Source: Candidatus Woesebacteria bacterium RBG_16_42_24
GTDB taxonomy: Bacteria; Patescibacteriota; Microgenomatia; UBA8517
Reading direction: 5' to 3'
Length of the DNA stretch: 64,000 nt
NCBI GenBank assembly: GCA_001792115.1
Contig: MGFX01000001.1
Span: 304,705 to 368,704 of the forward strand
In this document: positions 374 through 53,110 of the stretch, piece after piece
Layout of the letters: every line of letters starts with the position of its first letter
Numbering within the stretch: position 1 is the first letter of the stretch
Program-made: the position numbers and the translations under genes
The notes under the pieces: generated by a model
What the model saw: only the letters and a program-made list of their open reading frames with translations
What the model was told of the DNA's origin: nothing
Database searches by the model: none

Positions 374-493
374 GAACCAATTTTCCAATTTCCAATCGCC
401 AATTTCCAGTTAATTTTGAATTTAATAATTTTAAATTTGAGAACTCGATAATTATTTGGAATTTGGAAACTGGAGATTGGAGATTTTAGAACC

Positions 494-1093: not shown

Positions 1094-1173
1094 CGCGTGA
1101 GTAGAAAATGCCTAATTACTAATTTCTAATGACTAAAATGTATCAAAATATTAAATTTTCAAATTTCAAAATT

Positions 1174-1190
1174 CCCCGCCACAGGCGGGG
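1174..1190 (+). terminator. GC hairpin CCCCGCC-aca-GGCGGGG between rpsD and rpoA, immediately upstream of the rpoA RBS (GGAGGTG); possible attenuator or processing stem
   Basis: A perfect 7-bp GC stem read directly in the sequence. No U tract follows it, so it is not a classical terminator. Confidence 0.3.
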
Positions 1191-2586: not shown

Positions 2587-3024
2587 ATGAAGACTTATCA
2601 ACCAAAAGTTAAAGAAATAAAAAGGTCGTGGCAATTGCTTGATGCCAAAGATGAGATTTTGGGGAGACTTGCAACCAAAGCGGCAACTTTTCTTATGGGG
2701 AAAAATAAAGTAACATACTCTCCACACTTAGATAGCGGTGATTATGTAGTCATAGTTAATGCTGAGAAAATTGAGCTTAGCGGAAGGAAGAAGACCCAAA
2801 AAGTTTATCGAGGACACTCCGGTTATCCTGGGGGATTTAAGGAAGTCGCCTTTGCCAAACTCTCAAAGGAAAACCCAGCCAGGGTGGTTGAGCATGCAAT
2901 TGCCGGAATGCTTCCTGCGAATAGACTTAGAGGACCGAGACTTAAAAGATTAAAAATTATAGTTGGGGATAAAAATCCATACGTAGATAAGTTCAAAACT
3001 CAAAATTCAAAACTCAAAATTTAA
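2587..3024 (+). CDS. rplM: 50S ribosomal protein L13
   Basis: 145 aa. L13 N-terminus (MKTYQPKVKEIKRSW...LGRLATKAA). The C-terminal approximately 10 residues (KFKTQNSKLKI) are encoded by a CTCAAAA-type repeat. Confidence 0.9.
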   Translation: MKTYQPKVKEIKRSWQLLDAKDEILGRLATKAATFLMGKNKVTYSPHLDSGDYVVIVNAEKIELSGRKKTQKVYRGHSGYPGGFKEVAFAKLSKENPARVVEHAIAGMLPANRLRGPRLKRLKIIVGDKNPYVDKFKTQNSKLKI

Positions 3025-5396: not shown

Positions 5397-5438
5397 CATA
5401 GAAAGAAAGCTAAACCGTAAAAGGTTTGAGGGTGTAGC
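5394..5438 (+). repeat. direct repeat copy 1 (cgacatagaaagaaagctaaaccgtaaaaggtttgagggtgtagc), overlapping the last 3 nt of tRNA-Pro
   Basis: Near-identical copy at 6915-6960, differing by 1 indel and 2 substitutions. Read directly in the sequence. Confidence 0.7.
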
Positions 5439-5674
5439 TTTGAGTAATTACCGCTTCGTAGAGCAAAACTATTACCTCGCATTGCTTGATAATGATTTAC
5501 TCTTCTTTTACGCTCAATCGCTAAGTTACCACAAATTGTATTTATCTGCCCTTTTGTAGATTCTGGAATCCTTGTAGAAGGGTCGCTTGAAACTTTCGGC
5601 TGATTATCTAATTCATTCGGCTGGTCATTATCCATGACCTTAGTATATCAATATCCTGAAAGTCGTTAGGTTAA

Positions 5675-6914: not shown

Positions 6915-6960
6915 CGACATAGAAAGAAAGCTAAAGCGGTAAAAGGTTTGAGGGTATAGC
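6915..6960 (+). repeat. direct repeat copy 2
   Basis: See copy 1 at 5394-5438. Immediately upstream of the GC-rich esterase gene. Confidence 0.7.
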
Positions 6961-6985
6961 ATACTGTATAGTGTAATACTAGCTT

Positions 6986-7999: not shown

Positions 8000-8038
8000 A
8001 GAGGAAATCGTAACTGGGGTTTTCCTCTTGCAATTTTT
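7999..8038 (+). terminator. Rho-independent terminator after the esterase gene
   Basis: 9-bp stem AAGAGGAAA/TTTCCTCTT followed by GCAATTTTT. Confidence 0.5.
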
Positions 8039-8064
8039 CCTCGGAAGTTGTACAAGATAGCGCA

Positions 8065-9156
8065 ATGGCAAAGAGGAAAAAAGTTGAGACCAAAGCTCCG
8101 GTTCAAAAATCCGAAGGATCTTCGCAAAAACTTCAGGCGATAAGGCTCGCTATGGAGCAGATTGAGAAGCAGTATGGTCGGGGTTCAATTATGAGGCTTG
8201 GTGAGCGGGGAGACGCTCGACTCAAAATTGAAGTAATTCCAACCGGATCAATCGCGCTTGATTTGGCACTAGGAGTTGGGGGATTTCCCAGAGGACGCAT
8301 CGTTGAAATATATGGACCAGAAGCCTCAGGGAAAACAACAATTGCTCTTTCCGCTATTGCCGAGGCTCAAAGAAAAGGAGGCCAGGCAGCATTCGTTGAC
8401 GCCGAGCACGCTCTTGACCCGGCTTGGGCGGAGAAAATTGGAGTGAACCTTGACGATCTTTTAATGTCCCAGCCCGATACAGGCGAGCAGGCTTTGGAAA
8501 TTACGGAAACCTTAATCCGCTCGGGGGCTCTTGACGTAATTGTCGTTGACTCGGTTGCCGCCCTTGTCCCCAGGGCGGAGCTTGAGGGGGAGATGGGAGA
8601 CGCGGTGATGGGGATGCAGGCGAGACTTATGAGTCAGGCTTTAAGAAAACTTACGGGGGCAATTTCTAAGTCCAAAACGGTTCTAATATTCACTAACCAA
8701 TTAAGACAAAAAATCGGAGTTATGTTTGGGAATCCGGAAACGACACCGGGTGGATTGGCGTTAAAGTTTTATTCATCCATTAGACTCGATATAAGAAGAA
8801 TTGAAGTACTAAAAGACGGTGAAGCAGCGATTGGCTCGAGACATAGGGTGCGAGTTGTTAAAAATAAGGTAGCACCTCCTCTAAAGATAGCGGAACTTGA
8901 TATTATGGCCGATAAGGGAATTTCTCGCTCCGGCGGACTTTTAGACGTTGCGGTTGAATTGGGCTTGATGAGTAAAAGCGGATCATTCTTTAATTTTGAT
9001 GGGAAACCTTTGGCTCAGGGAAGAGAAGGAGCAAAAGCTTTTATTGAGGAACACACAAAATTTGCGGAAGAGATAGATAAAAAAATCCGCGATATGGTAG
9101 CCTCTGGGATAAAGCTTCCGAAAGAAATCGGCGAAGCCGAGGGTAAAGATTCTTAA
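8065..9156 (+). CDS. recA: recombinase RecA
   Basis: 363 aa. Walker [10 protein letters not shown], and [20 protein letters not shown]. Canonical RecA throughout. Confidence 0.95.
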
Positions 9157-9208
9157 GTAGTTGTCTTTCACTTAATATCTTTATATCTTAATATCGTAGT
9201 ATCAAACG

Positions 9209-9832
9209 ATGCCTTCTATAACCGCTATTAAACCCCAAAAGAACGGCAGGAGAGTCAATATTTATTTGGACGGTAAATTCGGATTCGGGATAGACATTGA
9301 GAATTTTGTAAAACTTGGACTCAAGGTTGAACAAGAGCTTTCTGATACAGAAATTGAGGGAATAGTTAAAAAAGCGGAGTTTCTAAAGACGCTGGATAAG
9401 CTCTTAAGGTTCGGAACCTTAAGGCCAAGAAGCGAGAAAGAGCTAAAAGATTGGCTTAAAAGAAAGAAAGTGCACGAGAGTTTGACCGAGGAGCTCTTTA
9501 ATCGATTGAACCGATTGGATTTGGTGGACGATAAAAAATTTGCCGAGTGGTGGATTGACCAGAGACAGAATTTCCGTCCAAAAGCGAAAAGAATATTGAA
9601 TATGGAATTAAGAATGAAGGGGATTAGAAAGGAAATAGTTAAAGATGTTTTGGATAGGCTTAAAATTGATGAAGAGAAAATTGCGAGAGAGCTTCTTGAG
9701 AAAAAGTTATACCGTTGGAAGAATCTTCCGAAATTAGAGAAAAGACAGAAAATGGGACAGTTTTTGGCGAGAAAAGGATTTGGGTGGGAGATAATTTCTA
9801 AATTGATAAAAGATTTTTCTTTTGAAGAATGA
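9209..9832 (+). CDS. recX: RecA regulator RecX
   Basis: 207 aa helical-repeat protein directly downstream of recA. RecX-like repeats (DD..FAEWW...RGF). Confidence 0.7.
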   Translation: MPSITAIKPQKNGRRVNIYLDGKFGFGIDIENFVKLGLKVEQELSDTEIEGIVKKAEFLKTLDKLLRFGTLRPRSEKELKDWLKRKKVHESLTEELFNRLNRLDLVDDKKFAEWWIDQRQNFRPKAKRILNMELRMKGIRKEIVKDVLDRLKIDEEKIARELLEKKLYRWKNLPKLEKRQKMGQFLARKGFGWEIISKLIKDFSFEE

Positions 9833-10312
9833 ATTCTGCTTGTTTTCTACTTACCCAAAAAGTTATTGTCCATTTCTTACTTGCCTAAGAAATGGACGAA
9901 AGAAGGGCACCCATTTAAATTATCCAGGTTTTCTTCGCTAAAGCTCATACTATACCGCTAAACTTAGCACTCGAGTGCTGCGGACAATAGCGGTATTACA
10001 AAAGAATTCGTTCAACTCATCAAAACTGGAAATTTATGGGGTTAGAATCAAACTTCAAATGCGTTTGACGATGAAAGGCAAAAATAGTAAAATTACCTTT
10101 GGAGTCGAAGAAATCATGGGAAAGAATCCAATTTACGATTCTTCTTTCGCCAACCGCGTTATTTAGCGGTTGAGTATTCTTTGCTCCTATAGAATCAGTT
10201 TATCGGGTTCCCGGTAAATCGGATTTCAGTTAATCAGTTGTTCGGGTTAAATATCCAACAAACCGACAATCCGAGATCTGATAACTGACAAGCTGAAAAA
10301 CTGAATTATATT

Positions 10313-11560
10313 ATGACTACATCTGATGACATCAAAATATTGGTAGAAGATTTAAGAAAACAAAGAGAGGCTCTTGATAAAAAGGAAGAAACCTTGAAAA
10401 AAAGAGAAGCGGAGCTAGTTGAAAGATTAGAAAAGGCTTCAGGAATGACTAAAGACGAAGCCTCAAAAATTCTTCTTGATGAGGTTCAGAAAAACTTAAC
10501 TAGCGAAATAGCCAAAAAGGTCCGCGCGGCGGAGGAAAGAGTTAAAGAAGAAGCTAATGAAAAATCCCGCGAAATTTTGGCAGACGCCATGAAACACGGT
10601 GCAACAAGTTATGTGGCTGAATATACGGTTTCATCGGTTACGGTTCCCAACGAAGATGTAAAAGGAAGAATAATCGGGGCCGGAGGAAGAAACATCAGAG
10701 CCTTTGAAAAGGAGACTGGGGTAGAGATAGAACTTGACGAAACAAATGAGATAAGGCTTTCCTCTTTTGACTCTGTAAGAAGGGAAATTGCCAAGAGGGC
10801 TCTTGAGATTTTAATCAGGGATGCCAGGATTCAGCCTTCGAGGATTGAAGAAGTGGTAAGACAGCTAAAGGGCGAGATGGAAGATGTGCTTTTAACTGAG
10901 GGCCGAAATATTGCCCAAGAATGCGGAGTATTTAATTTACCAGTTGAACTTCTAAGTTTAATTGGACGATATAAATTTAGAACGTCTTATGGGCAAAATT
11001 TGGGGTTACATACAATTGAAGAGACTAAAATCGGTATCGCGATTGCCAATGAACTAGGGGCCAAAGTGGATATCGTTAGACTTGGGTGTCTTCTTCACGA
11101 CATCGGAAAAGTTGTTACCGAAGAAGAGGGTACCCACGTTGAGGTTGGGGTTTCTACACTAAAACGCTTCGGCCTTCCCAAAGAGGTGGTGGCGGCCGTT
11201 GCCGAGCACCATGAGGATAAACCTTTCTCATCGGTTGAGTCGGTAATTGTTTGGACGGCTGATGCGATTTCCGGTTCTCGCCCCGGAGCAAGATACGAGC
11301 CGCACGAAGAATACGTCAAAAGAATGAGCAAGATTGAAGAAATAGTTGGAGGTTTTCCGGGGGTGGAATCTGTCATGGCTTTTCAGGCCGGTCGGGACGT
11401 TCGGGTAATCGTAAAACCAGACGAGGTGGACGATGATAGGTTAACCATCCTAGCTCATGATATTGCCCAAAGGTTGGAGAAAGAAACTCAATATGCAGGA
11501 CAAATAAAGGTTACGGCAATCCGAGAAGTAAGGGCAGTCGATACTACAAAAGCGAAATAA
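10313..11560 (+). CDS. rny: ribonuclease Y lacking the usual N-terminal transmembrane helix
   Basis: Coiled-coil N-terminus, KH domain (GRIIGAGGRNIRAFE), and HD domain (LLHDIGK ... AEHHEDKP). An in-frame TGA 27 nt upstream fixes the start. Confidence 0.85.
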   Translation: MTTSDDIKILVEDLRKQREALDKKEETLKKREAELVERLEKASGMTKDEASKILLDEVQKNLTSEIAKKVRAAEERVKEEANEKSREILADAMKHGATSYVAEYTVSSVTVPNEDVKGRIIGAGGRNIRAFEKETGVEIELDETNEIRLSSFDSVRREIAKRALEILIRDARIQPSRIEEVVRQLKGEMEDVLLTEGRNIAQECGVFNLPVELLSLIGRYKFRTSYGQNLGLHTIEETKIGIAIANELGAKVDIVRLGCLLHDIGKVVTEEEGTHVEVGVSTLKRFGLPKEVVAAVAEHHEDKPFSSVESVIVWTADAISGSRPGARYEPHEEYVKRMSKIEEIVGGFPGVESVMAFQAGRDVRVIVKPDEVDDDRLTILAHDIAQRLEKETQYAGQIKVTAIREVRAVDTTKAK

Positions 11561-11581
11561 ACTTCGAAAAGACCCAAATAC

Positions 11582-11610
11582 TTGACAAATTTTAAGTATT
11601 ACCATAATAT
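11582..11610 (+). promoter_or_regulatory. sigma70-like promoter for hup (-35 TTGACA, 17-nt spacer, -10 TAATAT)
   Basis: Consensus -35 and near-consensus -10 elements about 10 nt upstream of the HU start codon. Confidence 0.45.
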
Positions 11611-11619
11611 CAGCGGGAA

Positions 11620-11895
11620 ATGACGAAGAGGGAATTAATCGAGCAAGTTGCCCGAAAAGCCCATCTCACCAAAAGGGCAGCTGTGGAAGCTGTCGAGGTA
11701 TTTTTGGACGAAGTCGGACGCGTTCTCTCCAAAGGCGAAAAAGTGGTTCTTTCTGGATTCGGAACCTTTAGGGTTATATCAATGAAGGGTAAAACCGTCA
11801 AAATCCCCAAGACGGATAAGCTCGTTACAATCAAATCTCACCGTTCTCCCAGATTTACTCCGGGGAAGAAACTCAAAAGGCAAGTATTAAGATAA
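11620..11895 (+). CDS. hup: DNA-binding protein HU
   Basis: 91 aa. HU/IHF signature (GFGTFRV...R.PRFTPGK). Binding arm present. Confidence 0.85.
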   Translation: MTKRELIEQVARKAHLTKRAAVEAVEVFLDEVGRVLSKGEKVVLSGFGTFRVISMKGKTVKIPKTDKLVTIKSHRSPRFTPGKKLKRQVLR

Positions 11896-11987
11896 TCTCC
11901 AGTCTCCAAATTCCACTTTAGAAACTTGTTAATTAACTGGAATCTGGAAAATGGAAACTGGAAATTTGCCAGAGTATACTTGGCTTA

Positions 11988-12986
11988 ATGGACAAGGCAA
12001 TTTTGGTTGACCACTTAGTCAAAAATTTCGAAGTCACCGAAAAAACGCCGGGACTAATGGGTGCTTTCTCGACGCTTCTCTCGCCGAAAAAGAAAGTTGT
12101 CAGGGCCTTAAAAGACATCTCTTTTAGCGTAAGTAAGGGAGAATTGGTGGGTTTTATCGGCCCAAACGGAGCCGGGAAAACCACGACTTTAAAAGTCTTA
12201 TCCGGACTTTTGTATCCGACAGCCGGAATTACGCAGGTTTTGGGATTTGACCCCTGGGAAAGGCGCCCCGAATATCTCAAACGGATTTCGCTTGTGATGG
12301 GACAGAAGAACCAACTTTGGTGGGACCTTCCTGCAATTGAAACATTTGAACTAAATCGCGCGATTTACGAAATCCCCAAGAAAGTTTATAAAGAGTCTTT
12401 GGATGAGCTAGTAACACTTCTTGAGGTAGAGAAACTTCTCAACATTCAAGTCAGGAGGCTTTCTTTGGGACAAAGGATGAGGTTAGAACTCGTCGCAGCA
12501 CTGCTTCACCAGCCGGAAATTCTTTTTTTGGACGAGCCGACAATTGGGCTTGACCTTGTTGCCCAAGAAAAAATAAGGAATTTCATTTACGATTACAATC
12601 GTAAACACTCTGCCACAATTCTTCTGACTTCCCACAACATGGATGACGTAATTGATTTGGCAAGACGCGTGATTGTAATCGATGACGGTCGAATTATTTT
12701 TGATGGAATACTCGACGAGCTAATTGCACGGTTTGCAAAAGAAAAAATTATCAAATTGACTTTAACTAAAGAAATCGACACCAAAGAGCTTGAAAAAATT
12801 GGAAAGGTCAAAAGCATCCAGTTTCCAGAAGTTATTTTAAGAGTTCCCCGATCCGCAGCTGCAGTTGCCGCTTCCGAACTTTTGCAAAGCTTCCCGGTGG
12901 GAGATTTAACGATAGAAGAGGAAGACATAGAGGACGTCATTCGGGTGGTTTTTCGAGGGGAAGCCAAAAAGCTCTCCCGAAAATGA
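11988..12986 (+). CDS. ABC transporter ATP-binding protein
   Basis: Walker A GPNGAGKTTT, ABC signature LSLGQRMR, and Walker B LFLDEPT. 332 aa with a C-terminal extension. Confidence 0.85.
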   Translation: MDKAILVDHLVKNFEVTEKTPGLMGAFSTLLSPKKKVVRALKDISFSVSKGELVGFIGPNGAGKTTTLKVLSGLLYPTAGITQVLGFDPWERRPEYLKRISLVMGQKNQLWWDLPAIETFELNRAIYEIPKKVYKESLDELVTLLEVEKLLNIQVRRLSLGQRMRLELVAALLHQPEILFLDEPTIGLDLVAQEKIRNFIYDYNRKHSATILLTSHNMDDVIDLARRVIVIDDGRIIFDGILDELIARFAKEKIIKLTLTKEIDTKELEKIGKVKSIQFPEVILRVPRSAAAVAASELLQSFPVGDLTIEEEDIEDVIRVVFRGEAKKLSRK

Positions 12987-13786
12987 AAAAATATTTATCC
13001 GTCTTTAAAATTTCCTTCGCCCAGGAATTCGCCTACCGCTTAAATTTCATTATGTGGAGGGTGAGAAATGTCATGCAGATTATCTTGGTGTTTTTCCTTT
13101 GGGATACAGTTTTTTCAAACCCTGGAAGAGTTCTGTTTGGGTACGACAGGGCAAAAATTCTGACATATGTCTTCGGAATAATGATTGTTAAATCCCTGGT
13201 ATTATCAGCAAGGGCAGCAGACGTGGCTGGAGATATTTACAGAGGCGACATAATGAATCACCTTCTAAAACCCATGAGCTATTTTAAATTTTGGTTTACA
13301 AGAGATATATCCAGTAAAGCGCTAAATCTTCTATTTGCCGTTGGGGAATTTGCATTTCTTTTTATAATCTTAAGGCCACCGTTTTTTTTACAGACCGACC
13401 TATTGGCACTTTTCGGATTTTTCTTATCTATAGCCTTGGCAATTTTTATTTACTTTAACCTTCTTTTTATGACTAGTTCTATCCCGTTTTGGGCGCCAGA
13501 GCTCGGTTGGGGTTCGCACTTTTTGATAACGGCAATAGTTATAGAATTTTTGTCGGGATCATTATTCCCAATCGATATTCTGCCACTCACGATTCAGAAA
13601 ATATTATTCATATCGCCATTTCCGTATCTCATCTTTTTTCCCATACAAGTTTATCTGGGAAGGATTTCGGGGAGCGTCCTATTGGGCGGTTTAGCAATAT
13701 CCCTTTTCTGGGCCATAACTCTCTGGCTAGTTATGAATTTTATTTGGAATAAGGGACTGCGTGCTTATCAGGCATCTGGAAGATGA
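12983..13786 (+). CDS. ABC-2 type transporter permease
   Basis: 267 aa polytopic membrane protein. Start overlaps the stop of the ATPase gene. Confidence 0.6.
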   Translation: MKKYLSVFKISFAQEFAYRLNFIMWRVRNVMQIILVFFLWDTVFSNPGRVLFGYDRAKILTYVFGIMIVKSLVLSARAADVAGDIYRGDIMNHLLKPMSYFKFWFTRDISSKALNLLFAVGEFAFLFIILRPPFFLQTDLLALFGFFLSIALAIFIYFNLLFMTSSIPFWAPELGWGSHFLITAIVIEFLSGSLFPIDILPLTIQKILFISPFPYLIFFPIQVYLGRISGSVLLGGLAISLFWAITLWLVMNFIWNKGLRAYQASGR

Positions 13787-14571
13787 AAAAGATTTTGCGA
13801 TACCTAAATATCTGGTGGATAATGAGCAGGAATTCTTTTTCTATCTTTCTTTCCCTAAAGCTTTCGTTTTTAATCTTTTTAACAGGAAAAATCTTGAGAT
13901 TCATTTTTTTCATTTCATTTCTTTTCTTTATACTTCAGGGAACAAAAACATTAGCGGGTTACACAAGCAACCAAGCAATCTTCTTTTTTCTTACTTTCAA
14001 TTTGGTGGATGTAATGGCGCAGTTTCTCTTTAGGGAAGCTTATAGGTTTAGACCTCTTGTGGTTTCGGGCGATTTCGACTTAATTTTGGTAAAACCGGTG
14101 AACGCACTTTTCAGAGTTTTGATGGGGGGGGCAGATGTTCTGGATTTGATCACAATCCCGCCGATTATTTTCGCGGTCTATTATGTAGGTAGACTTCTTT
14201 CCCCCACAACAGCACACACTGTCCTTTTTCTACTTCTTATCATTAATGGTCTCCTCATCGCCACCGCTTTCCACATAGCAGTTTTGGCGTTGGGAATTAT
14301 TACCCTAGAGGTGGACCACACAATAATGATTTATAGGGATATAACAAACTTGGGTCGTTTCCCTGTAGATATTTATAAGCAGCCTTTGCAGGGAATTCTT
14401 ACCTATTTGATTCCGGTTGGGATTATGGTTACTCTTCCGGCAAAAGCGTTAATGGGATTGGTTACTCCATGGGGTATTGTGTCCTCCTTTGTACTAGGAA
14501 TAGTTGCTATTATTTTATCTTTGCGTTTTTGGAGCTTTGCCCTGACCAAATACTCAAGCGCAAGTAGCTAA
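13783..14571 (+). CDS. ABC-2 type transporter permease (second subunit)
   Basis: 262 aa polytopic membrane protein, translationally coupled to the upstream gene. Confidence 0.6.
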   Translation: MKKILRYLNIWWIMSRNSFSIFLSLKLSFLIFLTGKILRFIFFISFLFFILQGTKTLAGYTSNQAIFFFLTFNLVDVMAQFLFREAYRFRPLVVSGDFDLILVKPVNALFRVLMGGADVLDLITIPPIIFAVYYVGRLLSPTTAHTVLFLLLIINGLLIATAFHIAVLALGIITLEVDHTIMIYRDITNLGRFPVDIYKQPLQGILTYLIPVGIMVTLPAKALMGLVTPWGIVSSFVLGIVAIILSLRFWSFALTKYSSASS

Positions 14572-14572
14572 G

Positions 14573-15583
14573 ATGAAAAAACTTTTAGTTATAGTAGGGC
14601 CGACAGCGATTGGTAAAACCTCATTGGCTATCGCCCTTGCCAAGAAATTTAATGGGGAGGTAATATCCGCCGATTCGAGACAGGTTTATAAAGGGATGGA
14701 CATTGGGACAGGAAAGGACCTGTCCCGAAATTCCAAATTCCAACGAGAAAGTCGGTTACTCTTTCCAAATTCCAAATTAGAATTTAGAAATTTGGGTTTA
14801 GGATTTTACACCGTAAGCGGTGTACGAATTTGGGGTTATGATTTAGTCGAGCCCAAAAAGGATTTCAGCGTTGCCCAGTATATAAAAATTGTTCGAGTAA
14901 TTATTGACGACATTTTTGCAAGGGGAAAGCTCGTTATTCTGACTGGCGGAACCGGGCTTTATATAGAAGCATTAATAGATGGAATTGAAACGGTTTCGAT
15001 CCCGCCAAACCCTAAGCTTAGAAAATCTTTGTCCGAGAAAACTCGCGATGAACTTTTTGATACCTTAGCGCACATTGACCCGATAAAGGCGGCCTCGCTT
15101 AACTCCTCCGATAGAAAGAACCCTAGAAGACTTATCCGTGCAATTGAGATTGCCCTACAAAACTCAACCGCGAAGCGGGTTATTCTAACTCCAAAACTCC
15201 AAAAATCGAAACTTGATGCAAATACGCTTTTTATTGGACTTACTGCACCGAAGGAGTTTCTGTTCAATAATATCGAAAAAAGAGTTGAGGAAAGAGTTAG
15301 GGGAGGCATAAAAAAAGAGATTGAAGAACTTCTTGGCAAAGGTGTTTCATGGAAGGATCAATCGATGAGCTCTCTTGGATATAGAGAATGGAAAAGTTAT
15401 TTTGAGAGTAATGCAGCCGACGCTGAAGCAATTGAAAATTGGAAGAAGGAGGAAAATAAATATGCCAAAAGGCAGCTTACCTGGTTTAAACGTGATAAGA
15501 GGATAGGGTGGTTTGATGTAACAGATGCTGGTTGGCAAAGAAACGTGGAATTTATGGTCGAAAAATGGTACATTTCTAGATAA
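14573..15583 (+). CDS. miaA: tRNA dimethylallyltransferase MiaA with an approximately 30-aa in-frame insertion
   Basis: P-loop GPTAIGKTSLAI and SADSRQVYKGMDIGTGK. The insertion (DLSRNSKFQRESRLLFPNSKLEFRNLGLG) is encoded by CCAAATTCC-type repeat DNA. Confidence 0.85.
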   Translation: MKKLLVIVGPTAIGKTSLAIALAKKFNGEVISADSRQVYKGMDIGTGKDLSRNSKFQRESRLLFPNSKLEFRNLGLGFYTVSGVRIWGYDLVEPKKDFSVAQYIKIVRVIIDDIFARGKLVILTGGTGLYIEALIDGIETVSIPPNPKLRKSLSEKTRDELFDTLAHIDPIKAASLNSSDRKNPRRLIRAIEIALQNSTAKRVILTPKLQKSKLDANTLFIGLTAPKEFLFNNIEKRVEERVRGGIKKEIEELLGKGVSWKDQSMSSLGYREWKSYFESNAADAEAIENWKKEENKYAKRQLTWFKRDKRIGWFDVTDAGWQRNVEFMVEKWYISR

Positions 15584-15585
15584 CC

Positions 15586-16563
15586 ATGCCACGTAAGATT
15601 GAAATTTCTCACAGAACGATAGTTTTCATGGTCCTTTTCTTACTATTCCTGTGGCTTTTATATCTAATCCGAGACATTATTTTGGAATTTTTTGTTGCAC
15701 TTTTAATCATGGCAATATTGGATCCGACAGTTACACGCTTTTCTAGATTTAAAATTCCCCGTGCAATCTCGGTACTAGTTGTTTATATTCTGTCAATTGG
15801 TCTTATTTCACTAACCATTGGGGCCATAATCCCGCCGTTAGTTGAGCAAACAGCGGCATTTGCCGTTGGACTTCCGAAATACCTAGCCAACCTTGGAGTT
15901 TCTCGGTTTGTTAGCGACGAAATTGTGAGGCAACTACTTAACCAAATTGGAATTATTCCGGCACAAGCTCTTAAAATCGGAATTTCTATTTTCTCAAACG
16001 TATTAGGAGTACTAACCGTCTTAATACTTGCTTTTTATCTTCTTTTGACCCGAGATAAATTGGACGAGGCTTTGGGATTCTTTTTTGGAGACGACAGGAG
16101 AAAAGAAGCAATTAAGCTCGTCGACGTTTTGGAACAAAAACTTGGAGGTTGGGCCAGAGGAGAGCTTGCCCTTATGGTACTGGTTGGGGTTTCTACTTAT
16201 TTCGGGTTAATTCTTCTCGGAATTCCATTTGCGCTCCCTTTGGCCCTTCTTGCGGGGCTACTTGAAATTGTTCCTTATGTAGGGCCGATAATTTCTGCAA
16301 TACCCTCTGTTATTATCGGACTCGGCATCTCCCCCATAATAGGCCTTGCGACGGCTGCACTCTATTTTCTGATACAGCAAGTCGAGAATTATGTATTTGT
16401 GCCAAAAGTTATGGAAAAATCGGTTGGGGTTTCCCCGATTATCACTCTTTTAGCCCTTGCGGTTGGATTTAGATTAGCCGGAGTCGTAGGAATTGTAATG
16501 TCTGTTCCTGTTGTAATCTCCATCCAAGTAATAGTTGCGCGATATCTTCTAACGAAAGAGTAA
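15586..16563 (+). CDS. AI-2E family transporter (PerM/YhhT-like)
   Basis: 325 aa, 8 TM segments, with the conserved LLEIVPYVGPII...IGL region. Confidence 0.8.
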   Translation: MPRKIEISHRTIVFMVLFLLFLWLLYLIRDIILEFFVALLIMAILDPTVTRFSRFKIPRAISVLVVYILSIGLISLTIGAIIPPLVEQTAAFAVGLPKYLANLGVSRFVSDEIVRQLLNQIGIIPAQALKIGISIFSNVLGVLTVLILAFYLLLTRDKLDEALGFFFGDDRRKEAIKLVDVLEQKLGGWARGELALMVLVGVSTYFGLILLGIPFALPLALLAGLLEIVPYVGPIISAIPSVIIGLGISPIIGLATAALYFLIQQVENYVFVPKVMEKSVGVSPIITLLALAVGFRLAGVVGIVMSVPVVISIQVIVARYLLTKE

Positions 16564-16592
16564 CATTTCTGGAAAAAAGGCGATCTTTCTGC

Positions 16593-16598
16593 TATAAT
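16593..16598 (+). promoter_or_regulatory. -10 element TATAAT immediately upstream of the rnpB 5' end
   Basis: gcTATAATgc sits 1-7 nt before the start of the P1 stem. Confidence 0.4.
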
Positions 16599-16943
16599 GC
16601 TTTCGCTCTGGAGGAAGGACGACTAGGACGTACACATTTGCTCAAAGCAAATTGTTACGTTCAGGAAAGTCCAGGCAGCAGAAGGCAGGGTGGTCGCCGC
16701 AAGGCGACACCCCGTTAGATAGCCGTAAGCGGCACCTAATGGGGCTAGTTAGAGCCACAGAGACTATGTCGATCTCGCCACTTAAAATGTGGCGGACACG
16801 AGTGAAAAGGGGCAATCCTCCCCGCTGCAACCTCCGAATAGGACGTTATCAGGAGCCTTCCCGAGTCCTGAAGTTTGAGGGCATAGATGGATTGTCGTTT
16901 AAAAACAGAACCTGGCTTACTCTACCCTCCAGAGCACGAAAGC
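16599..16943 (+). ncRNA. rnpB: RNase P RNA (bacterial type A-like)
   Basis: Conserved AGGAAAGTCCAGGC (P4 5' strand) and ACAGAACCTGGCTTA (P4 3' strand). P1 stem GCTTTCGCTCTGGAGG pairs with CCTCCAGAGCACGAAAGC. Length about 345 nt. Confidence 0.75.
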
Positions 16944-16969
16944 GGCTCGCCAAAGGCGAGCCTTTTTCG
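16943..16969 (+). terminator. Rho-independent terminator of rnpB
   Basis: GGCTCGCC-aaa-GGCGAGCC followed by TTTTTCGTTT. Confidence 0.65.
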
Positions 16970-17152
16970 TTTGTGTAAAGACTTGATTCTTCGTGAAAAA
17001 TTGGTCAGAATGGTGGTTAGGGTCTTCTAAATAAAGGGGGCTTGCCCCCCGTAGCCGTATTAGTAATGAGACCCTCCTCCGCCAAGGCTACGGAAGGGTT
17101 CGCCCGTTATTTTTAATAGAATGAGCGGAGGGCGAAGGGGGGTGAGAAACTT

Positions 17153-40091: not shown

Positions 40092-41402
40092 ATGACGCCA
40101 GCCAAAAAACTACTTTTTATTTTCTTGCTTTTTTTCGCCGCCTTATTTGTCAGTCTTCCCAATAAGTTTTCCCTTTTCGGGCGGGAATTTACTCGTCCGA
40201 ATTTAGATTTCAAGGCCGGGAAGTTTGAATTAAAGAAAAATTTCGACCTCATCTACGGATTAGATTTAGCCGGGGGAAGCCACCTGGTTTTTGAGGCAGA
40301 AAGTTCTCAAATCGCCGAGGAGAAAAGGAAAACTGCCATTGAGGGTGTAAGAGACGTGATTGAGAGAAGGGTAAATCTTTTTGGAATTTCGGAGCCAAAT
40401 GTTCAAGCCTCCTCATTCGAAGGTAAAGATAGGATTATTGTTGAGCTTCCAGGAATAAAAGATACGAAAGAGGCGGCTAAGTTAATCGGGAAAACCGCCC
40501 AGCTTGTTTTTGCCGAAATCCAGGGAGAAGGAGAAAATGCAAAGCTGATGTTGGCAGATTTGACCGGTGCCGATTTAAAAAGTGCTAAGGAAATTTTTGA
40601 TAATACCACGGGTAAACCAGCAGTTTCGTTAGAATTTACCCAAGAGGGTGGAAAAAAATTCGCTACTCTGACCGAGAGAAATGTGGGCAAACAACTCCCG
40701 ATAATATTAGATAGTCAACCGTTAACGAGCCCTGTTGTTCAAGAGACAATTACCCAGGGAACTGCTCAAATTACGGGAAATTTTACTACCGACGAGGCCA
40801 AGAAACTGGCAATCCAATTAAATGCTGGAGCTCTCCCTGTTCCTATTTCTTTGGTCGAGGAGAGAACGGTTGGAGCAACACTTGGGGCAGAATCGGTTAG
40901 CCGAAGCATTAAAGCTGGCTTGGTCGGACTTTTAATGGTTCTAGTTTTTATGGTTGCCGCCTATGGAAGACTTGGACTAGTTGCCGACTTGGGACTTATT
41001 ATTTTTGGAGTCTTGACGCTAGCTCTTTATAAATTAATTCCGGTTGTACTGACTCTTCCTGGAATCGCCGGATTTTTGCTTTCAGTTGGGATGGCGGTGG
41101 ACTCCAACATCCTAATTTTTGAAAGGTTCAAAGAAGAGCGGGGTAAAAGACCCCTGGCGGATGCTTTAGAGGTTTCATTCGGTCGAGCCTGGGATTCTAT
41201 AAGGGACGCTAATATTGCGACTTTGGTTACCACCTTTATTTTAGCAAACCCTTTTGATTGGTCGTTTCTTCACACCTCGGGTCCTGTAAGGGGTTTTGCA
41301 ATTACACTTGCACTGGGAATTGGAATAAGTTTATTTACAGGAATTGTGGTTTCGAGGAATTTATTGAGGGTATTTGTTAGAGAAAATCCCAAATTTAATT
41401 AG
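40092..41402 (+). CDS. secD: protein translocase subunit SecD
   Basis: 436 aa. Periplasmic domain plus a C-terminal 6-TM bundle with the AGIAGFLLSVGMAVDSNILIFER motif. Confidence 0.9.
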   Translation: MTPAKKLLFIFLLFFAALFVSLPNKFSLFGREFTRPNLDFKAGKFELKKNFDLIYGLDLAGGSHLVFEAESSQIAEEKRKTAIEGVRDVIERRVNLFGISEPNVQASSFEGKDRIIVELPGIKDTKEAAKLIGKTAQLVFAEIQGEGENAKLMLADLTGADLKSAKEIFDNTTGKPAVSLEFTQEGGKKFATLTERNVGKQLPIILDSQPLTSPVVQETITQGTAQITGNFTTDEAKKLAIQLNAGALPVPISLVEERTVGATLGAESVSRSIKAGLVGLLMVLVFMVAAYGRLGLVADLGLIIFGVLTLALYKLIPVVLTLPGIAGFLLSVGMAVDSNILIFERFKEERGKRPLADALEVSFGRAWDSIRDANIATLVTTFILANPFDWSFLHTSGPVRGFAITLALGIGISLFTGIVVSRNLLRVFVRENPKFN

Positions 41403-41431
41403 AGTTTAGTGTTTAGAGTTTTGAATTTATT

Positions 41432-43801: not shown

Positions 43802-45509
43802 GAATAATCAAAGGAAATGGGAGATATTAAGTAAACTCGGAAGGCCTGCCTTGCCGGCAGGCAGGCAAAAGTCAAAAGTCAAAACTGAAGAAATAATTGA
43901 TGCACTCCTCAAAAACCGCGGAATAAAAAGTTCTAAAGAGAGAAAAGAATTTTTTAATCCCCGACATCCGAAAGACCTTACTTTAAGGGAACTCGGAATA
44001 AGTAAATCCCAAGTTGTGAAGGCGATTCAAAGAATCAGGGAAGCGATTAAAAAAGAGCAAATAATTATCATTTACGGAGACTACGATGTAGATGGAATTT
44101 GCGGGACAGGTATTCTTTTTGAAACGCTCTACCTACTCCACAAAAATGTTCGTCCGCACTTGCCAGATAGGTTTTCGGAAGGCTACGGATTAAATCCGGA
44201 TTCCGTGGTCAAGCTCAAAGATAACCATTCTAAGCTTGGTGTCATAATTTGCGTTGACAACGGAATTTCAGCTTTTACTGGTGTTGCGAAGGCCAAAGAA
44301 TTAGGGATTGATGTAATTATCGTTGACCACCACTATCGAAAAAAAGGGACATTGAAAAGTTTTGCGACAGTTTATACCAAGAAAATAACTGGAGCCGAAA
44401 TTGCTTGGATATTTGCGAGGGAAGTCAGGAAAAAACTTAATATTAAGGATTCCCAGTTAACAAAAGGGAATGGATTAGAACTGGCAGCTTTGGGGACTAT
44501 TGCCGACATGCTTCCTCTTCTTGGCCCAAATCGTTCGTTTGCTTGGCATGGAATGAAGGCTTTAAGACAAACATCAAGGCTCGGCCTTTTGGCACTTTTT
44601 GAAGAGGCGAGGATTGTAAAAGAGAAAATTGTATCGTACGAAGTCAACTATATTATTTCCCCGAGATTAAATGCGGCTGGAAGACTCGAGAATGCAACCG
44701 ATTCTCTAAGACTCATTTGTACGGGCAGTAGAGAGCGTGCAAATGAGTTATCCCAGCACCTTGGGAGGGTCAACACGAGGCGCCAAGGGATACAAGAAGA
44801 TATCGTTCTTCACGCAAAAAATTTAGTTGCGGCTTCTTCGGCTGGCAAAGTCTTAGTCTTGGCGGATGAAAGTTATCACGAGGGGGTGGTTGGACTTGCG
44901 GCCGCAAAGTTGGTCGAGGAGTTTGGTAGGCCGGCGATAGTTTTCGCAAAAGGAGCGGAAATTTCAAAAGGTTCTGGCCGGTCGGTAAGCGGATTCGACC
45001 TTGTTTCTGCACTTTCAAAAGTTGGGAAGCATCTAATAAGTTGGGGAGGACACAAGGCGGCTGCAGGACTTACCATATCTACCAAGAAGATTGAAGTTTT
45101 TGCAAAGGAATTTGCAAAAGTTGCCGACCCCCTTTTAACAGATGAAGTTTTAGAAAGGAAGCTAAAAATTGACTTGGAGCTTGAATTCGCGGGTCTTACG
45201 AGGGAGTTTTTAAATATTATTAAGCAATTTGAACCAACCGGGGCGGGAAATCCTGCTCCCGATTTTGCAACTAACGGCGTAACGGTTCTTACCGCAAGAG
45301 CGGTAGGAGTTGACGGAAAACATTTGAAATTGAAACTCGAAAAAGGAGGTTTTAGTTTTGACGCAATTGCTTTTTCCCGAGGGGATCTATATCCTTTCCT
45401 TTCTCCCGACAAAAAGATTGATATTGCCTACAGCTTAGCCGAAAATACGTGGAACGGACAGACAAAAATACAATTAAAAATTAGGGATATTAAAATACCA
45501 TCTAAATGA
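43800..45509 (+). CDS. recJ: single-stranded-DNA-specific exonuclease RecJ
   Basis: DHH motif (IIIYGDYDVDGICG...DHH) and a DHHA1 domain (GGHKAAAG). Start placed at MNNQRKW to avoid overlapping cca. Confidence 0.85.
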   Translation: MNNQRKWEILSKLGRPALPAGRQKSKVKTEEIIDALLKNRGIKSSKERKEFFNPRHPKDLTLRELGISKSQVVKAIQRIREAIKKEQIIIIYGDYDVDGICGTGILFETLYLLHKNVRPHLPDRFSEGYGLNPDSVVKLKDNHSKLGVIICVDNGISAFTGVAKAKELGIDVIIVDHHYRKKGTLKSFATVYTKKITGAEIAWIFAREVRKKLNIKDSQLTKGNGLELAALGTIADMLPLLGPNRSFAWHGMKALRQTSRLGLLALFEEARIVKEKIVSYEVNYIISPRLNAAGRLENATDSLRLICTGSRERANELSQHLGRVNTRRQGIQEDIVLHAKNLVAASSAGKVLVLADESYHEGVVGLAAAKLVEEFGRPAIVFAKGAEISKGSGRSVSGFDLVSALSKVGKHLISWGGHKAAAGLTISTKKIEVFAKEFAKVADPLLTDEVLERKLKIDLELEFAGLTREFLNIIKQFEPTGAGNPAPDFATNGVTVLTARAVGVDGKHLKLKLEKGGFSFDAIAFSRGDLYPFLSPDKKIDIAYSLAENTWNGQTKIQLKIRDIKIPSK

Positions 45510-50410: not shown

Positions 50411-51769
50411 ATGGATGATATTCGAACCCGTTTTGCCCCAAGCCCAACAGGCCCACTTCATATTGGGGGACTTCGTACCGCGCTTTATTCTTACGCCCTA
50501 GCGAAACACGACTCCGGCGATTTTCTGTTAAGGATTGAGGATACTGATAAAAAACGTGAGGTTCCGGGAGCTAAGGAGAAAATTCAAGAACTCCTTAGAG
50601 AGTTCGGTCTTATATGGGACGGGGAAGTAGTTATCCAATCAAAAAGAGTCGAAGAAGGGGTTTATAAGAAGCTGGCCGAGAAATTGGTTAGCGAAGGACA
50701 CGCCTTTTACTGCGATTGTAAAGCCAGAAACGCCAAAGAAGAGGGATATTCAAAAGACCTTCGCGACCCGTGCCGTGATAAAGGGAAAGCTAGCGGCGCA
50801 ATTAAACTGAAAGTTCCCGATGGAGAAAAAATCGCATTTACCGATTTTGTTTTGGAGAAGGAGGTTTTTTGGGACTCATCGACAGTTTCCGATACAACCC
50901 TTCTTAAATCCGACGGATTTCCCACCTATCACCTGGCGGTTGTAATTGATGATAATGACATGGGAATTACCCACGCCCTAAGGGGGCACGACTGGATGCC
51001 GTCAACCCCCATACACCTTTTAGTCTATAAATATTTGGGTTATAAATTACCCGAAATCGGGCACTTGACCGATATTTTAGATCCCGAGGGAGGAAAGTTA
51101 TCTAAAAGGAAAGGGAGTACCTCGGTTGAGGCACTCCTTAATGAAGGATATCTGCCCGAATCCATACTAAACTTTGTAATGCTCCTTGGCTGGGCGCCGA
51201 AAGACAATCGTGAACTTTTTAGCCTGCAAGAGTTTGTCAAAGCATTTGACCCCAAAGGTTTCCAAAAATCAAACCCGGTCTTTAACCGAGATAAACTTGA
51301 TTGGTTCAACGGACATTATATTCGTCAACTTGCAGCTGACGAATTAAACTCAAAACTCAAAGCTCAAAACTCAAAATTTGCAGGTTTGGACAAAGAAAAG
51401 CAATTCGCAATTTCAAATCTTGTTCGGGAAAGGATAAATAAGCTTTCGGATTTTGACGAGCTGGCTGGGTTTTTCTTTGAGGAAAGGAAACCTGACATTA
51501 AACTATTCGGACCTAAACATAGGGAGCACCTGCAATCCGCCAACGAAGTTTTAGAAAAAGTTGAGAATTGGGAAAAGGAAGAGATTGACCAGAAGCTTTT
51601 GACTCTAATTAAGGATAAAGAATTCAAAACAGGGGATTTTTTTATGGATTTAAGAGTTGCAATTTGCTCAAGTAAGATTACTCCACCAATAAACGATTCA
51701 GTTGTAATTTTAGGAAAAGAAGAAACAATAAGGAGAATAAGAAAAGTTTTATCTAGCTTGACGAACTGA
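50411..51769 (+). CDS. gltX: glutamyl-tRNA synthetase
   Basis: HIGH motif (PTGPLHIGG) and KMSKS motif (KLSKRKG). 452 aa. Contains an in-frame CTCAAAA repeat stretch (NSKLKAQNSKF). Confidence 0.9.
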   Translation: MDDIRTRFAPSPTGPLHIGGLRTALYSYALAKHDSGDFLLRIEDTDKKREVPGAKEKIQELLREFGLIWDGEVVIQSKRVEEGVYKKLAEKLVSEGHAFYCDCKARNAKEEGYSKDLRDPCRDKGKASGAIKLKVPDGEKIAFTDFVLEKEVFWDSSTVSDTTLLKSDGFPTYHLAVVIDDNDMGITHALRGHDWMPSTPIHLLVYKYLGYKLPEIGHLTDILDPEGGKLSKRKGSTSVEALLNEGYLPESILNFVMLLGWAPKDNRELFSLQEFVKAFDPKGFQKSNPVFNRDKLDWFNGHYIRQLAADELNSKLKAQNSKFAGLDKEKQFAISNLVRERINKLSDFDELAGFFFEERKPDIKLFGPKHREHLQSANEVLEKVENWEKEEIDQKLLTLIKDKEFKTGDFFMDLRVAICSSKITPPINDSVVILGKEETIRRIRKVLSSLTN

Positions 51770-51798
51770 CCAAGTAACGAATTAACGAATAACGATTT

Positions 51799-52767
51799 AT
51801 GGGAAAGCTGCCTACACAAACATATCACGAGATAGATGAGGAGAGAATTGATTTTGAGTTTCTTCGGAATAAATTAAAACTCAAGCAAATCGAAGCCAAA
51901 AGGGCTTTTTCAGAGAAATATCCCCACGCTATCAATTTTCTTCTAGAGAAAGGGGTTCAGCTTGAAAAAATTCGCGAACATTCGGCCAGGATTTTGGGTG
52001 CTGGGGCAATGGCTGGAAGCCTTCTTTTAACTCCTCCCTCTGGTACCAAAGCCCTTCCTCCCCCCCACGAGATAATAGAGAAAATTAAAGCAGCCCAAGC
52101 TGCGCCAATTACACCACCGCAAGAGATGCTGGTGGCTACACTTACAGAACATTTACCAGAAAAAACCCGACCCTTGAGCCGCGAAGAAGAAAAATATTTA
52201 GAGCGGATTTTTAATGAGGTTGTGGGAGTTTCGGCTAGGGCAACTCTCGAGGGGGAACACCTTAATACCACTTACGGACTAATTGGGGCGGAGCAGCACC
52301 TAAGGCTCTTTCCCGGGGACACAATAGCTAACCACAAGCCATATCTGAAAGAAGGAATAGCCCCGGGTCGCGGAGCTTGGGGTTTCTTTGCCCCATCGAA
52401 AACCGAGTTAACAGCCGATTTAGAAGAGAAAGAAAGATGGTATGCAGTAGTGCAGACTCTTTATTTGCCCGATTGGAATAAGCGTCAACCCTACTTAAAA
52501 AACTGGTATAAATATCGAAAGGTCCTAATGGTTAATAGTAAAAATGGTAACGCTGTGGTCGCGGCAGTTGCCGATTCGGGTCCGGCCGCTTGGACGGGCA
52601 AGCACTTTGGGGGAAGTCCGGAGGTTATGGAATATTTGGGAGGGCCAAGATATAAAAAGGGCCCGGTAATTGTATTTTTTGTGGATGACCCTGAAAATAA
52701 AATTCCCTTGGGGCCGGTGGAATATAATAAGATAAATATCGCAGGATTACCTGTAATGGAAATTTAA
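51799..52767 (+). CDS. RlpA-like double-psi beta-barrel (DPBB) domain protein
   Basis: C-terminal segment KVLMVNSKNGNAVVAAVADSGPAAWTGKHFGGSPEVMEYLG fits the RlpA/DPBB pattern (vNl.NGksvvvrvnDRGP...aa..LG). 322 aa. Confidence 0.45.
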   Translation: MGKLPTQTYHEIDEERIDFEFLRNKLKLKQIEAKRAFSEKYPHAINFLLEKGVQLEKIREHSARILGAGAMAGSLLLTPPSGTKALPPPHEIIEKIKAAQAAPITPPQEMLVATLTEHLPEKTRPLSREEEKYLERIFNEVVGVSARATLEGEHLNTTYGLIGAEQHLRLFPGDTIANHKPYLKEGIAPGRGAWGFFAPSKTELTADLEEKERWYAVVQTLYLPDWNKRQPYLKNWYKYRKVLMVNSKNGNAVVAAVADSGPAAWTGKHFGGSPEVMEYLGGPRYKKGPVIVFFVDDPENKIPLGPVEYNKINIAGLPVMEI

Positions 52768-52783
52768 TAATGACTAATTTCTA

Positions 52784-53110
52784 ATGTCAAAACTATACTA
52801 CGACCATTTAGTAGTTTTGGATGAGGTCGAAGCTGAGATTAAAAAATCTACCAAAACTTTGGAGGAAAAAGAGGAACTTTGGAAAGTGGTGGATGAAACT
52901 ATCCACCACAGGGTAATGGGATGTGTTCTTGATAAACTCCCCAGAGAGCACCACGAGGAATTTTTGCATAAATTTCATAAAGCACCCCACGATGAAAGTC
53001 TTATAGATTACCTAAAAGAAAAAGCCGGGGAAAATATAGAGGAGCTAATTCGCCAAGAAATAGGAAACCTCGCATTTGAGCTACTCCAGGAGATTCGAGG
53101 TAAGAAATAA
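52784..53110 (+). CDS. hypothetical protein, possible antitoxin partner of the downstream DUF4258 gene
   Basis: 108 aa, acidic. Its stop overlaps the downstream start (TAATG). Confidence 0.35.
   Translation: MSKLYYDHLVVLDEVEAEIKKSTKTLEEKEELWKVVDETIHHRVMGCVLDKLPREHHEEFLHKFHKAPHDESLIDYLKEKAGENIEELIRQEIGNLAFELLQEIRGKK

Follow-up and report, generated by a model that had tools for sequence, protein, structure and literature searches.

The stretch analysed here, hereafter the window, comprises 64,000 nucleotides of the genome of Candidatus Woesebacteria bacterium RBG_16_42_24, a member of the Microgenomates within the Candidate Phyla Radiation (CPR, or Patescibacteria), and corresponds to positions 304,705 to 368,704 of contig MGFX01000001.1, which is 393,967 nt long. 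Its GC content is ~42-43%, and Pfam searches confirmed the genes coding for S11, S4, RpoA, L17, L13, S9, HU, MiaA, SecD/SecF, the CCA-adding enzyme, RecJ and GltX. Between these genes, and inside several of them, lie short tandem arrays of a unit of 7, sometimes 8, nt, which are the subject of this study (Table 1). CPR genomes are regarded as streamlined. A preliminary description of this DNA had pointed to A/T-rich short repeats in the spacers and, in reading frame, inside miaA, gltX and the end of rplM; every repeat site that it quoted reads as stated in the sequence, and translation of the three genes gave the peptides that it had listed. Up to six independent conspecific assemblies carry these arrays without any difference, so that they are not assembly artefacts. 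Loci of relatives are designated below by L-numbers, L164-L170 being the conspecific contigs that were compared. Among the matches listed in contig scans, the closest relatives had 52% identity in MiaA and 71% in S4; closer ones were obtained through exact-protein look-ups.

Tandem Repeats Finder reported 26 rows in the window, most of period 7 and some of period 8. In a period scan evaluated against dinucleotide shuffles, eight arrays of period 7 were counted where 0.45 +/- 0.59 are expected, and four of period 8 (0.25 expected), while all other periods yielded 0-1 arrays each. In a 7-mer census under a third-order Markov model, the heptamer words of the arrays were enriched at most ~2-fold. 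As to the doubt whether these motifs are more frequent than base composition would predict, the tandem arrangement is clearly enriched but the single heptamer words are not strongly so; on the latter ground a high-copy dispersed word, or a family resembling repetitive extragenic palindromes (REP), was dropped as a description of the repeats. The 14-mer ACTAATTTCTAATG, earlier noted as shared between two spacers, was found at 1118-1131 and 52773-52786, with 0.07 occurrences expected. Units fall into subfamilies within the window, one formed by the S11-S4, HU-ABC and miaA arrays (z 6-12.5), another by those of rplM, gltX, recJ and secDF (z 6-13), and a third by the S4-rpoA and 52768 arrays (z 6.8). 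A window-wide inverted-repeat scan, which is uninformative for arrays as imperfect as these, detected no dispersed palindrome family. Array-bearing spacers number ~8 of the 44 that are at least 20 nt long, every one of them between co-directional genes; arrays do occupy spacers, but the statement that they fill many intergenic regions was generous.

Within coding sequence, peptides of the form NSKF or NSKL occur five times in ~19,700 translated residues of the window (0.5 expected), and only in L13, MiaA and GltX. None of the window's coding units contains a stop on the sense strand, unlike the intergenic-only units TTAGAGT and CTAATTT. A global test found no difference in stop-free units from random heptamers of equal composition, hence no genome-wide bias towards coding-compatible units.

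Table 1. Tandem arrays of 7-8 nt units and associated features in the window (positions are those of the window)
Feature	Position	Strand	Units and remarks
5' arm of inverted array, rpsK-rpsD (S11-S4) spacer	377..408	+	CCAATTT, ~4.4 copies
3' arm of inverted array, rpsK-rpsD spacer	454..485	+	ATTTGGA/TTGGAGA units
Direct arrays, rpsD-rpoA spacer	1112..1174	+	CTAATTA x3.6 (1112-1136), TTCAAAT x3 (1154-1174), then GC hairpin CCCCGCCACAGGCGGGG
Array forming the last ~10 rplM codons (KFKTQNSKLKI-stop)	2992..3021	+	(TTCAAAACTCAAAA) x2.1
8-nt array, recA-recX spacer	9171..9203	+	CTTAATAT x4
Inverted arrays of 7-8 nt units, RNase Y gene (rny) leader	10195..10305	+	Ends 8 nt before the start codon
Inverted arrays, HU-ABC transporter spacer	11896..11966	+	TCTCCAG/TCTCCAA/ATTCCAC, then CTGGAAT/CTGGAAA
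Repeat-derived insertion, miaA codons ~50-78	14726..14807	+	AAATTCC x2.3, TTCCAAA x2.3, then TTAGAAT/TTAGAAA/TTTGGGT/TTAGGAT (complementary-type)
8-nt array, second variable MiaA loop (codons ~205-211)	15187..15204	+	AACTCCAA x2.2
Array over the secD stop codon, filling the secD-secF spacer	41399..41429	+	TTAGAGT x4.4
GC-rich palindrome and array, recJ codons 13-30 (LGRPALPAGRQKSKVKTE)	43838..43889	+	GGCCTGCCTTGCCGGCAGGCAGGC, then (GTCAAAA) x3; in frame
Array, gltX codons 312-323 (NSKLKAQNSKF)	51346..51378	+	(AACTCAA) x4.7, in frame
7-8 nt array filling the spacer downstream of gltX	51775..51799	+	TAACGAAT-type, x3.2
TAATnnC-type units	52768..52795	+	x3; span a 16-nt spacer and the next gene's start; 14-mer common with 1118-1131
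Period-7 arrays (Tandem Repeats Finder), first part	377-408, 412-438, 454-485, 1112-1136, 2992-3021, 11935-11964		
Period-7 arrays (Tandem Repeats Finder), second part	14728-14743, 14763-14778, 41399-41429, 43866-43884, 51346-51376		
Period-8 arrays (Tandem Repeats Finder)	9171-9203, 10253-10305, 15187-15204, 51775-51799		

The insertion in MiaA, previously put at about 30 residues, amounts to ~27 in comparison with solved MiaA structures, and residues 50-85 of the protein stand opposite 9 residues of PDB 2qgn. In 27 Woesebacteria-type orthologues the length of this loop ranges from ~0 to 40 residues, with NSKF or NSKL in many of them. At the DNA level, the AATTCCA/TTCCAAA units of the window with their complementary-type arm have as counterparts (AATTCGA) x4.5 in L171, (AACTCTA) x4 followed by an inverted (ATTTAGR) x4 in L172 (fold z -3.4), a perfect (AATTCGC) x4 in L005, and in L010 (GGAAAGT)4 split by a 21-nt GC palindrome. 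The loop thus varies in length and sequence because each lineage holds a heptamer array with a unit of its own. The RNA fold of the window's insert is not significant (z -0.7). The second array of the gene also corresponds to variable columns of the orthologue alignment. In an AlphaFold2 model of MiaA computed from the alignment, the mean predicted local distance difference test score (pLDDT) was 87.9, with low confidence only at residues 61-70 and 203-210 (below 50 in the latter); both stretches coincide with the repeat-derived segments.

The gltX array lies between the catalytic domain (Pfam, residues 4-298) and the anticodon-binding domain (324-447). That this repeat is in frame was borne out, but it is not an insertion: relative to 119 homologues and to solved structures of glutamyl-tRNA synthetase, the segment shows no meaningful length change and is better described as a native-length segment at a domain boundary, with essentially no added length. 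The array measures 33 nt in six of six lineages and the unit differs, being AACTCAA (x4.7) in the window, of AATTCAA type in L173, a nearly perfect AATTCGA in L161, and degenerate in L174, L162 and L163. The encoded peptides change with it (NSKLKAQNSKF, SSKFKIQSSKF, SSKFEIRNSKF). Units within an array differ at 0.5-1.0 positions, as against ~2.25 between the orthologous units of the window and L161. Since units within an array are closer to each other than to their orthologues, this pattern indicates, on the sequence evidence, the signature of concerted evolution at fixed length and frame.

It had been anticipated that the repeat interpretation would fail if orthologues carried the same extra residues. 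Similar residues are indeed present, LNSKFxxxNSKF standing at the array position in a large subgroup of GltX homologues (65-79% identity), but the underlying DNA is an orthologous array with lineage-specific units; the orthologues have similar NSKF residues because a homogenising DNA array is common to them, and not through conservation of the peptide. This bears on the proposal that NSKF/NSKL is a functional motif conserved at the protein level, the DNA periodicity being a by-product. The motif's presence in that subgroup and its recurrence in the MiaA loop of many orthologues would fit such a proposal. We nevertheless consider it hardly credible, given that the same peptide appears in three unrelated proteins and only at loops, a linker or a tail, that the DNA is heptamer-periodic even at synonymous positions, that the units change together so that the gltX peptide changes too, that the MiaA loop arrays of other lineages encode NSQFAIRNSQF and GKWNLACRQAGVESGKL, and that the segments are low in pLDDT.

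Comparison with conspecific contigs (99.6-99.98% identity) revealed four indel events in ~81 kb. In one of them, the gltX array of contig L164 has lost exactly 14 nt, or two units (L164:9880-10010, equivalent to window ~51349). This deletion frameshifts the gene and splits it right at the domain boundary into a 338-aa catalytic open reading frame (ORF) and a 127-aa anticodon-domain ORF, the latter beginning at a TTG 10 nt past the array. Living allele or error alike, the deletion as read in the assembled sequence shows instability by whole units. No indel was found at any array in contigs L165-L170, and among the cluster members of MiaA, GltX, L13 and RecJ the full-length variants are equal in length, with no 7-aa length polymorphism. 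The arrays could in principle be contingency (phase-variation) loci that toggle genes through unit number, an idea to which a unit length that is not a multiple of three and the splitting of gltX by the two-unit deletion lend some weight. It is very unlikely, however, since the genes concerned are housekeeping or essential, the arrays are short (at most 4.7 units), full-length GltX is encoded in several other assemblies, and this is the single array variant that the conspecific comparison yielded; the invariance of the other arrays at the conspecific time-scale means that they are not hypermutable contingency loci.

In L13, the Pfam domain stops at residue 130 of 145, and most relatives end at or near DKFK. 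The derivation of the rplM C-terminus from the repeat was upheld, with ~8 added residues (TQNSKLKI), and independent repeat-encoded tails were found in the L13 proteins of L115, L112 and L126. Alignment with orthologues showed the L13 tail to be lineage-specific, as had been supposed, and the same applies to an N-terminal segment of RecJ: ~14 residues (LGRPALPAGRQKSKVK) of the annotated protein (569 aa, start at 43800) are missing from the three syntenic relatives L161-L163.

In the spacers, two kinds of arrangement were observed. Three of them, namely rpsK-rpsD, HU-ABC and the rny leader, consist of paired complementary arrays that form long, imperfect predicted hairpins, and the remaining arrays of the window are direct and unstructured (fold z near 0). 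The rpsK-rpsD hairpin extends over ~382-483, with a predicted RNA fold of -34.9 kcal/mol (z -4.9) on the sense strand versus -28.4 kcal/mol on the antisense strand; its stem starts 9 nt past the stop codon, and its 3' arm carries a GGAG located 11 nt ahead of the rpsD ATG. The corresponding values are -35.4 kcal/mol (z -4.2) for the rny leader and -24.9 kcal/mol (z -3.0) for the HU-ABC spacer, which in relatives L171 and L172 measures just 18-20 nt. The arrays were also considered as intrinsic terminators, which was dropped: a terminator and promoter scan of 1-17000 gave no terminator-like site at any array, with counts not above shuffles. In an Rfam scan of the window only two tRNAs reached the gathering score, and no array matched a known structured RNA family.

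At orthologous junctions of relatives, inverted arrays recur across lineages with unrelated units. The S11-S4 spacer holds arrays in the window, L082, L083 and L092, and is itself absent from L084-086 and L090-091; in the relatives without this spacer the S4 start directly follows the S11 stop, and several have GGAG in the last S11 codons. The secD-secF spacer contains inverted arrays of other units in L161 and L163, and arrays are found in the S4-rpoA spacer of L082. Given that the arrays are present or absent among relatives at the same junctions, they have been gained and lost. Where present, they tend to self-complementarity; predicted hairpins of relatives gave z -7.8 (L092, S11-S4), -3.5, -3.4 and -2.5.

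These observations raise the question of whether the inverted arrays are selected intercistronic RNA structures, such as coupling bridges, RNase III or RNase Y sites, or stabilisers comparable to REP and bacterial interspersed mosaic elements (BIME), heptamer periodicity being merely the way in which hairpins are built and renewed. In addition to their recurrence at the same operon junctions, the stems begin 3-9 nt past the upstream stop and finish 5-25 nt ahead of the downstream start, and in the window, L082 and L083 the GGAG upstream of rpsD belongs to the 3' arm. Moreover, in five of six hairpins G-U pairs give the sense RNA greater stability than the antisense, a bias that is at most suggestive of an RNA-level role, and the window encodes RNase Y with such a hairpin in its own leader. 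Yet the spacer is wholly missing at these junctions in many close relatives, which makes the structure dispensable, many of the arrays are direct and show no structure, neither an Rfam match nor a terminator-like tail accompanies the hairpins, and the 3' arm of L092 has no Shine-Dalgarno sequence. Such an explanation, which is partly compatible with the slippage account given below, is less likely than not.

The periodicity is not restricted to the window. Across 1.9 Mb of related, mostly CPR, loci, 126 arrays of period 7 were found where 15 are expected, the largest excess among periods 4-12. Heptamer arrays are in fact the dominant short tandem repeat class in the loci sampled, which contradicts the earlier remark that such repeats are unusual for streamlined genomes. 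By crude gene calls, 47% of these arrays fall between genes and 13% at gene edges, intergenic DNA making up ~13% of the total. Coding arrays are A-rich on the sense strand in 50 cases versus 10 and cluster near protein termini, the N-terminal share being an artefact, in part, of extended ORFs; among intergenic arrays the two orientations are balanced (19 versus 19). Units from different loci resemble each other more within one genome than between genomes, with a mean distance of 2.18 against 2.61 +/- 0.06 in GC-stratified permutations (p < 1/3000). In L115:141-1260, on a Microgenomates-like metagenome contig that also has the heptamer-encoded L13 tail, a pair consisting of (AATTGAG)n followed by (AACTTTC)n occurs three times within 1.2 kb, and the copies look like local duplication or dispersal of the whole pair.

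Several of these features could be explained if the arrays were copies of a miniature mobile element, such as a miniature inverted-repeat transposable element (MITE), a REP-doublet hairpin (REPIN) or an element resembling the small dispersed repeats (SDR), perhaps moved in trans by an enzyme such as the Y1 transposase whose gene lies at 54773-55483. Whole inverted arrays have been gained in a lineage-specific manner in tight junctions and in recJ, the units are more alike within than between genomes, units in the window group into subfamilies and two of its sites have a 14-mer in common, one composite array pair is present three times in L115, and in L010 the 21-nt GC palindrome is nested in a perfect (GGAAAGT)4. 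Like REP, BIME and REPIN, the arrays are intergenic and hairpin-forming, are placed between co-directional operon genes, and share the window with a Y1 transposase related to REP-associated tyrosine transposases (RAYT) or IS200. REPs, in contrast, have a conserved sequence of 20-40 nt in hundreds of copies; no sequence is conserved across the arrays of the window, their arms are themselves heptamer arrays, and the hairpin GCAAGGCGAGGCCTTGC at the Y1_Tnp gene occurs in the window only there and is unrelated to the heptamers. No conserved full-length element or terminal inverted repeats were seen, and comparison of occupied with empty sites gave no consistent MITE-type ends or target-site duplications, the pairs being too distant for a base-precise comparison. 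Furthermore, heptamer words are just ~2-fold enriched, and orthologous arrays are equal in length and different in unit, which points to turnover in situ. A mobile element is therefore quite unlikely to be the source of the arrays.

Heptamer repeats of several kinds are known from other bacteria. The short tandemly repeated repetitive (STRR) sequences of heterocystous cyanobacteria comprise STRR1 (CCCCAGT), STRR2 (TTGGTCA) and STRR3 (CAACAGT); Mazel is said to have described them in 1990 as heptamer tandem arrays dispersed in the genome. The small dispersed repeats of Nostoc are reportedly small palindromic elements nested in other repeats and occasionally in frame in genes, an account attributed to Elhai in 2008, a paper cited in PMC3116915. 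Relative to both, taxon and units differ and the copy numbers here look much lower: the units found in this Woesebacteria host are CCAATTT, TCCAAAT, CTCAAAA, GTCAAAA, CTAATTT and CTGGAAA, none of them an STRR unit.

Heptanucleotide repeats have been described as the class of long simple sequence repeats (LSSR) that is most abundant in many bacteria, and polymerase slippage has been proposed as their origin (Mrazek, Guo & Shah 2007, as summarised in PMC4692102 and PMC4679880). Two features by which LSSR are recognised were found here, namely units of 5-11 nt, mostly 7 nt, repeated in tandem head to tail, in the window, and arrays commoner than composition predicts, in the window and in the 1.9 Mb. 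As to a third, change of copy number by whole units, the two-unit gltX deletion stands beside ~10 invariant arrays, and the concerted evolution of orthologous arrays speaks for turnover. As far as those two summaries go, the likeness extends to a mostly intergenic position, a sporadic phylogenetic distribution and the attribution to slippage. The arrays differ from LSSR in their CPR host with a genome of ~1 Mb, in having several unit flavours per genome, and in being short (2-5 units), often in inverted pairs, and in several cases inside essential genes. The Xanthomonas GGGAATC and Nostoc GGGGA(C/T)T repeats are likewise intergenic heptamer arrays whose position is conserved between related species while length and sequence vary (PMC4692102), and some of the Xanthomonas heptamers form convergent inverted pairs able to fold into stem-loops (Rehm et al. 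2015, PMC4692102). Those repeats are G-rich and G-quadruplex-forming, with essentially one motif per genus (PMC4692102), whereas the present arrays combine an A/T-rich sequence with C or G, lack G-tracts and draw on many motifs.

The TAACTGA repeats of Beggiatoaceae, Cyanobacteria and Bacteroidetes occur in ribosomal-protein operons, including, in Beggiatoaceae, a position upstream of rpsD (MacGregor 2015, PMC4679880). They resemble the present arrays in lying just before start codons and in having rare in-ORF copies that are confined to the periphery of proteins; they have been suggested to act post-transcriptionally (PMC4679880). However, they consist of one fixed, direct unit with strong orientation bias, and the arrays here have varied units, no intergenic bias and frequent inverted pairs; TAACTGA itself occurs once in the window, in a mixed array at ~10283. 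No paper linking CPR with heptamer or simple-sequence repeats was found in the literature searched, and the arrays represent a known kind of bacterial repeat that is apparently undescribed so far in Woesebacteria and CPR.

On this evidence, the arrays are probably slippage-driven heptanucleotide simple-sequence arrays, with units of 7 and sometimes 8 nt, the CPR counterpart of LSSR, STRR and TAACTGA repeats, filtered by selection; that they are neither a discrete mobile element nor a functional peptide motif is the simplest account. The preliminary description had spoken of an expanding simple-repeat or miniature element tolerated in coding sequence, of which the DNA-level simple sequence tolerated in genes stands, but no discrete element with fixed ends or sequence was found. 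Coding arrays sit at structurally tolerant protein sites, namely in disordered loops, in a linker between domains and at the N- or C-terminus. Slipped-strand mispairing in replication would lengthen, shorten and homogenise the arrays, and the arms of inverted pairs could stay complementary via intrastrand template switching, selection for pairing, or both. Occasional exchange or copying among arrays may give rise to the genome-specific unit flavours, and selection would spare arrays in spacers as well as those coding arrays that bring no stop into the sense strand, keep the frame and lie in permissive segments. That RNA is the level at which the spacer hairpins mostly act is, in our judgement, about as likely as not. 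If they do, the stem would draw the upstream stop and the downstream start or Shine-Dalgarno sequence together, making an insertion of 90-120 nt in a tight operon junction compatible with coupled translation, and the hairpin may double as a processing or stabilising structure.

A number of points weigh against the slippage account and the role proposed for the hairpins. Slippage poorly explains how a complete inverted array of 92-120 nt comes to lie in a junction that measures 0-20 nt in relatives, or the likeness of units from scattered loci within a single genome; whole inverted arrays in tight junctions, together with genome-specific units, point to some copying between sites and leave some probability to a mobile component and to a selected RNA structure. 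The arrays are not hypervariable, all but one (~10 others) being invariant among conspecific contigs, and the exception, the two-unit deletion, frameshifts an essential gene, gltX, and may be an assembly or sequencing artefact and not a living allele. In two relatives the folds of the arrays do not exceed those of shuffles in stability (z -1.1 and -1.4), for one of the six hairpins the antisense strand gives the more stable fold, and the function of the hairpins is something that we infer and no more. In addition, gene calls at most of the relatives' loci are crude ORF calls, which inflates the share of arrays counted within coding sequence.

A bolder alternative gives more weight to the hairpins, proposing that the inverted arrays are a selected class of intercistronic CPR hairpins, conserved in structure and free in sequence, that bridge stop and start for coupling or RNase processing, their arms kept complementary by concerted evolution and their genome-specific flavours reflecting active copying between loci. 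We regard it as unlikely, though if true it would make them a novel sort of miniature element, regulatory or mobile, recognisable by periodicity and not by sequence, that can colonise the loops of essential proteins. Dynamic 7-nt arrays persist in tight operon junctions and in essential genes (miaA, gltX, rplM, recJ) despite the presumed streamlining of CPR genomes. Alignments and annotations of CPR proteins are cluttered by lineage-specific insertions and low-complexity peptides (NSKF..., PAGRQ...), some of which the arrays explain, and the orthologous gltX and miaA arrays offer a clean natural case of tandem-repeat concerted evolution under constraint of frame and length. Should the hairpins affect translation or mRNA processing, they would amount to a widespread, so far unannotated layer of expression control in unculturable organisms.

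Other repeats and palindromes were noted in the window. A palindrome, CCTGCC(T)TGCCGGCAGGCAGG (43838-43866), underlies the peptide PALPAGRQ in recJ and is present as a single copy in the window. A near-identical palindrome of 20-21 nt was found in three unrelated CPR loci (L004:2935-2960, L010:2550-2575 and L047:9140-9160), the L010 copy being the one inside miaA nested in the perfect (GGAAAGT)4. This palindrome, which recalls the small dispersed repeats of Nostoc, is possibly a small element found throughout the CPR. At 1176-1192, directly behind the heptamer arrays and shortly before the rpoA Shine-Dalgarno sequence (GGGAGG), stands the perfect GC hairpin CCCCGCC-ACA-GGCGGGG, and different GC hairpins occupy the position upstream of rpoA in L083, L084 and L088. 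The Y1 transposase gene (PF01797, IS200/IS605- or RAYT-like; minus strand) is flanked by the GC hairpin GCAAGGCGAGGCCTTGC at 54746-54762 and 55515-55531, with a third, inverted copy inside the gene (54955-54971) and a cluster of substitutions relative to L164 at 54883-54955. On the minus strand, the cca gene contains a GC-rich repetitive stretch, GAGCCTGAGCCTCAGAGCCGAAGGCCTGAGCGGAGCGAAGG (43358-43397), with an in-frame length difference of 30 nt between the window and L164. Two non-coding spacers are long for a compact genome, at 6263-6985 (723 nt) and 9833-10312 (480 nt), neither of which matches Rfam; the first shows conspecific indel polymorphisms of 29 nt (6397) and 6 nt (6594).

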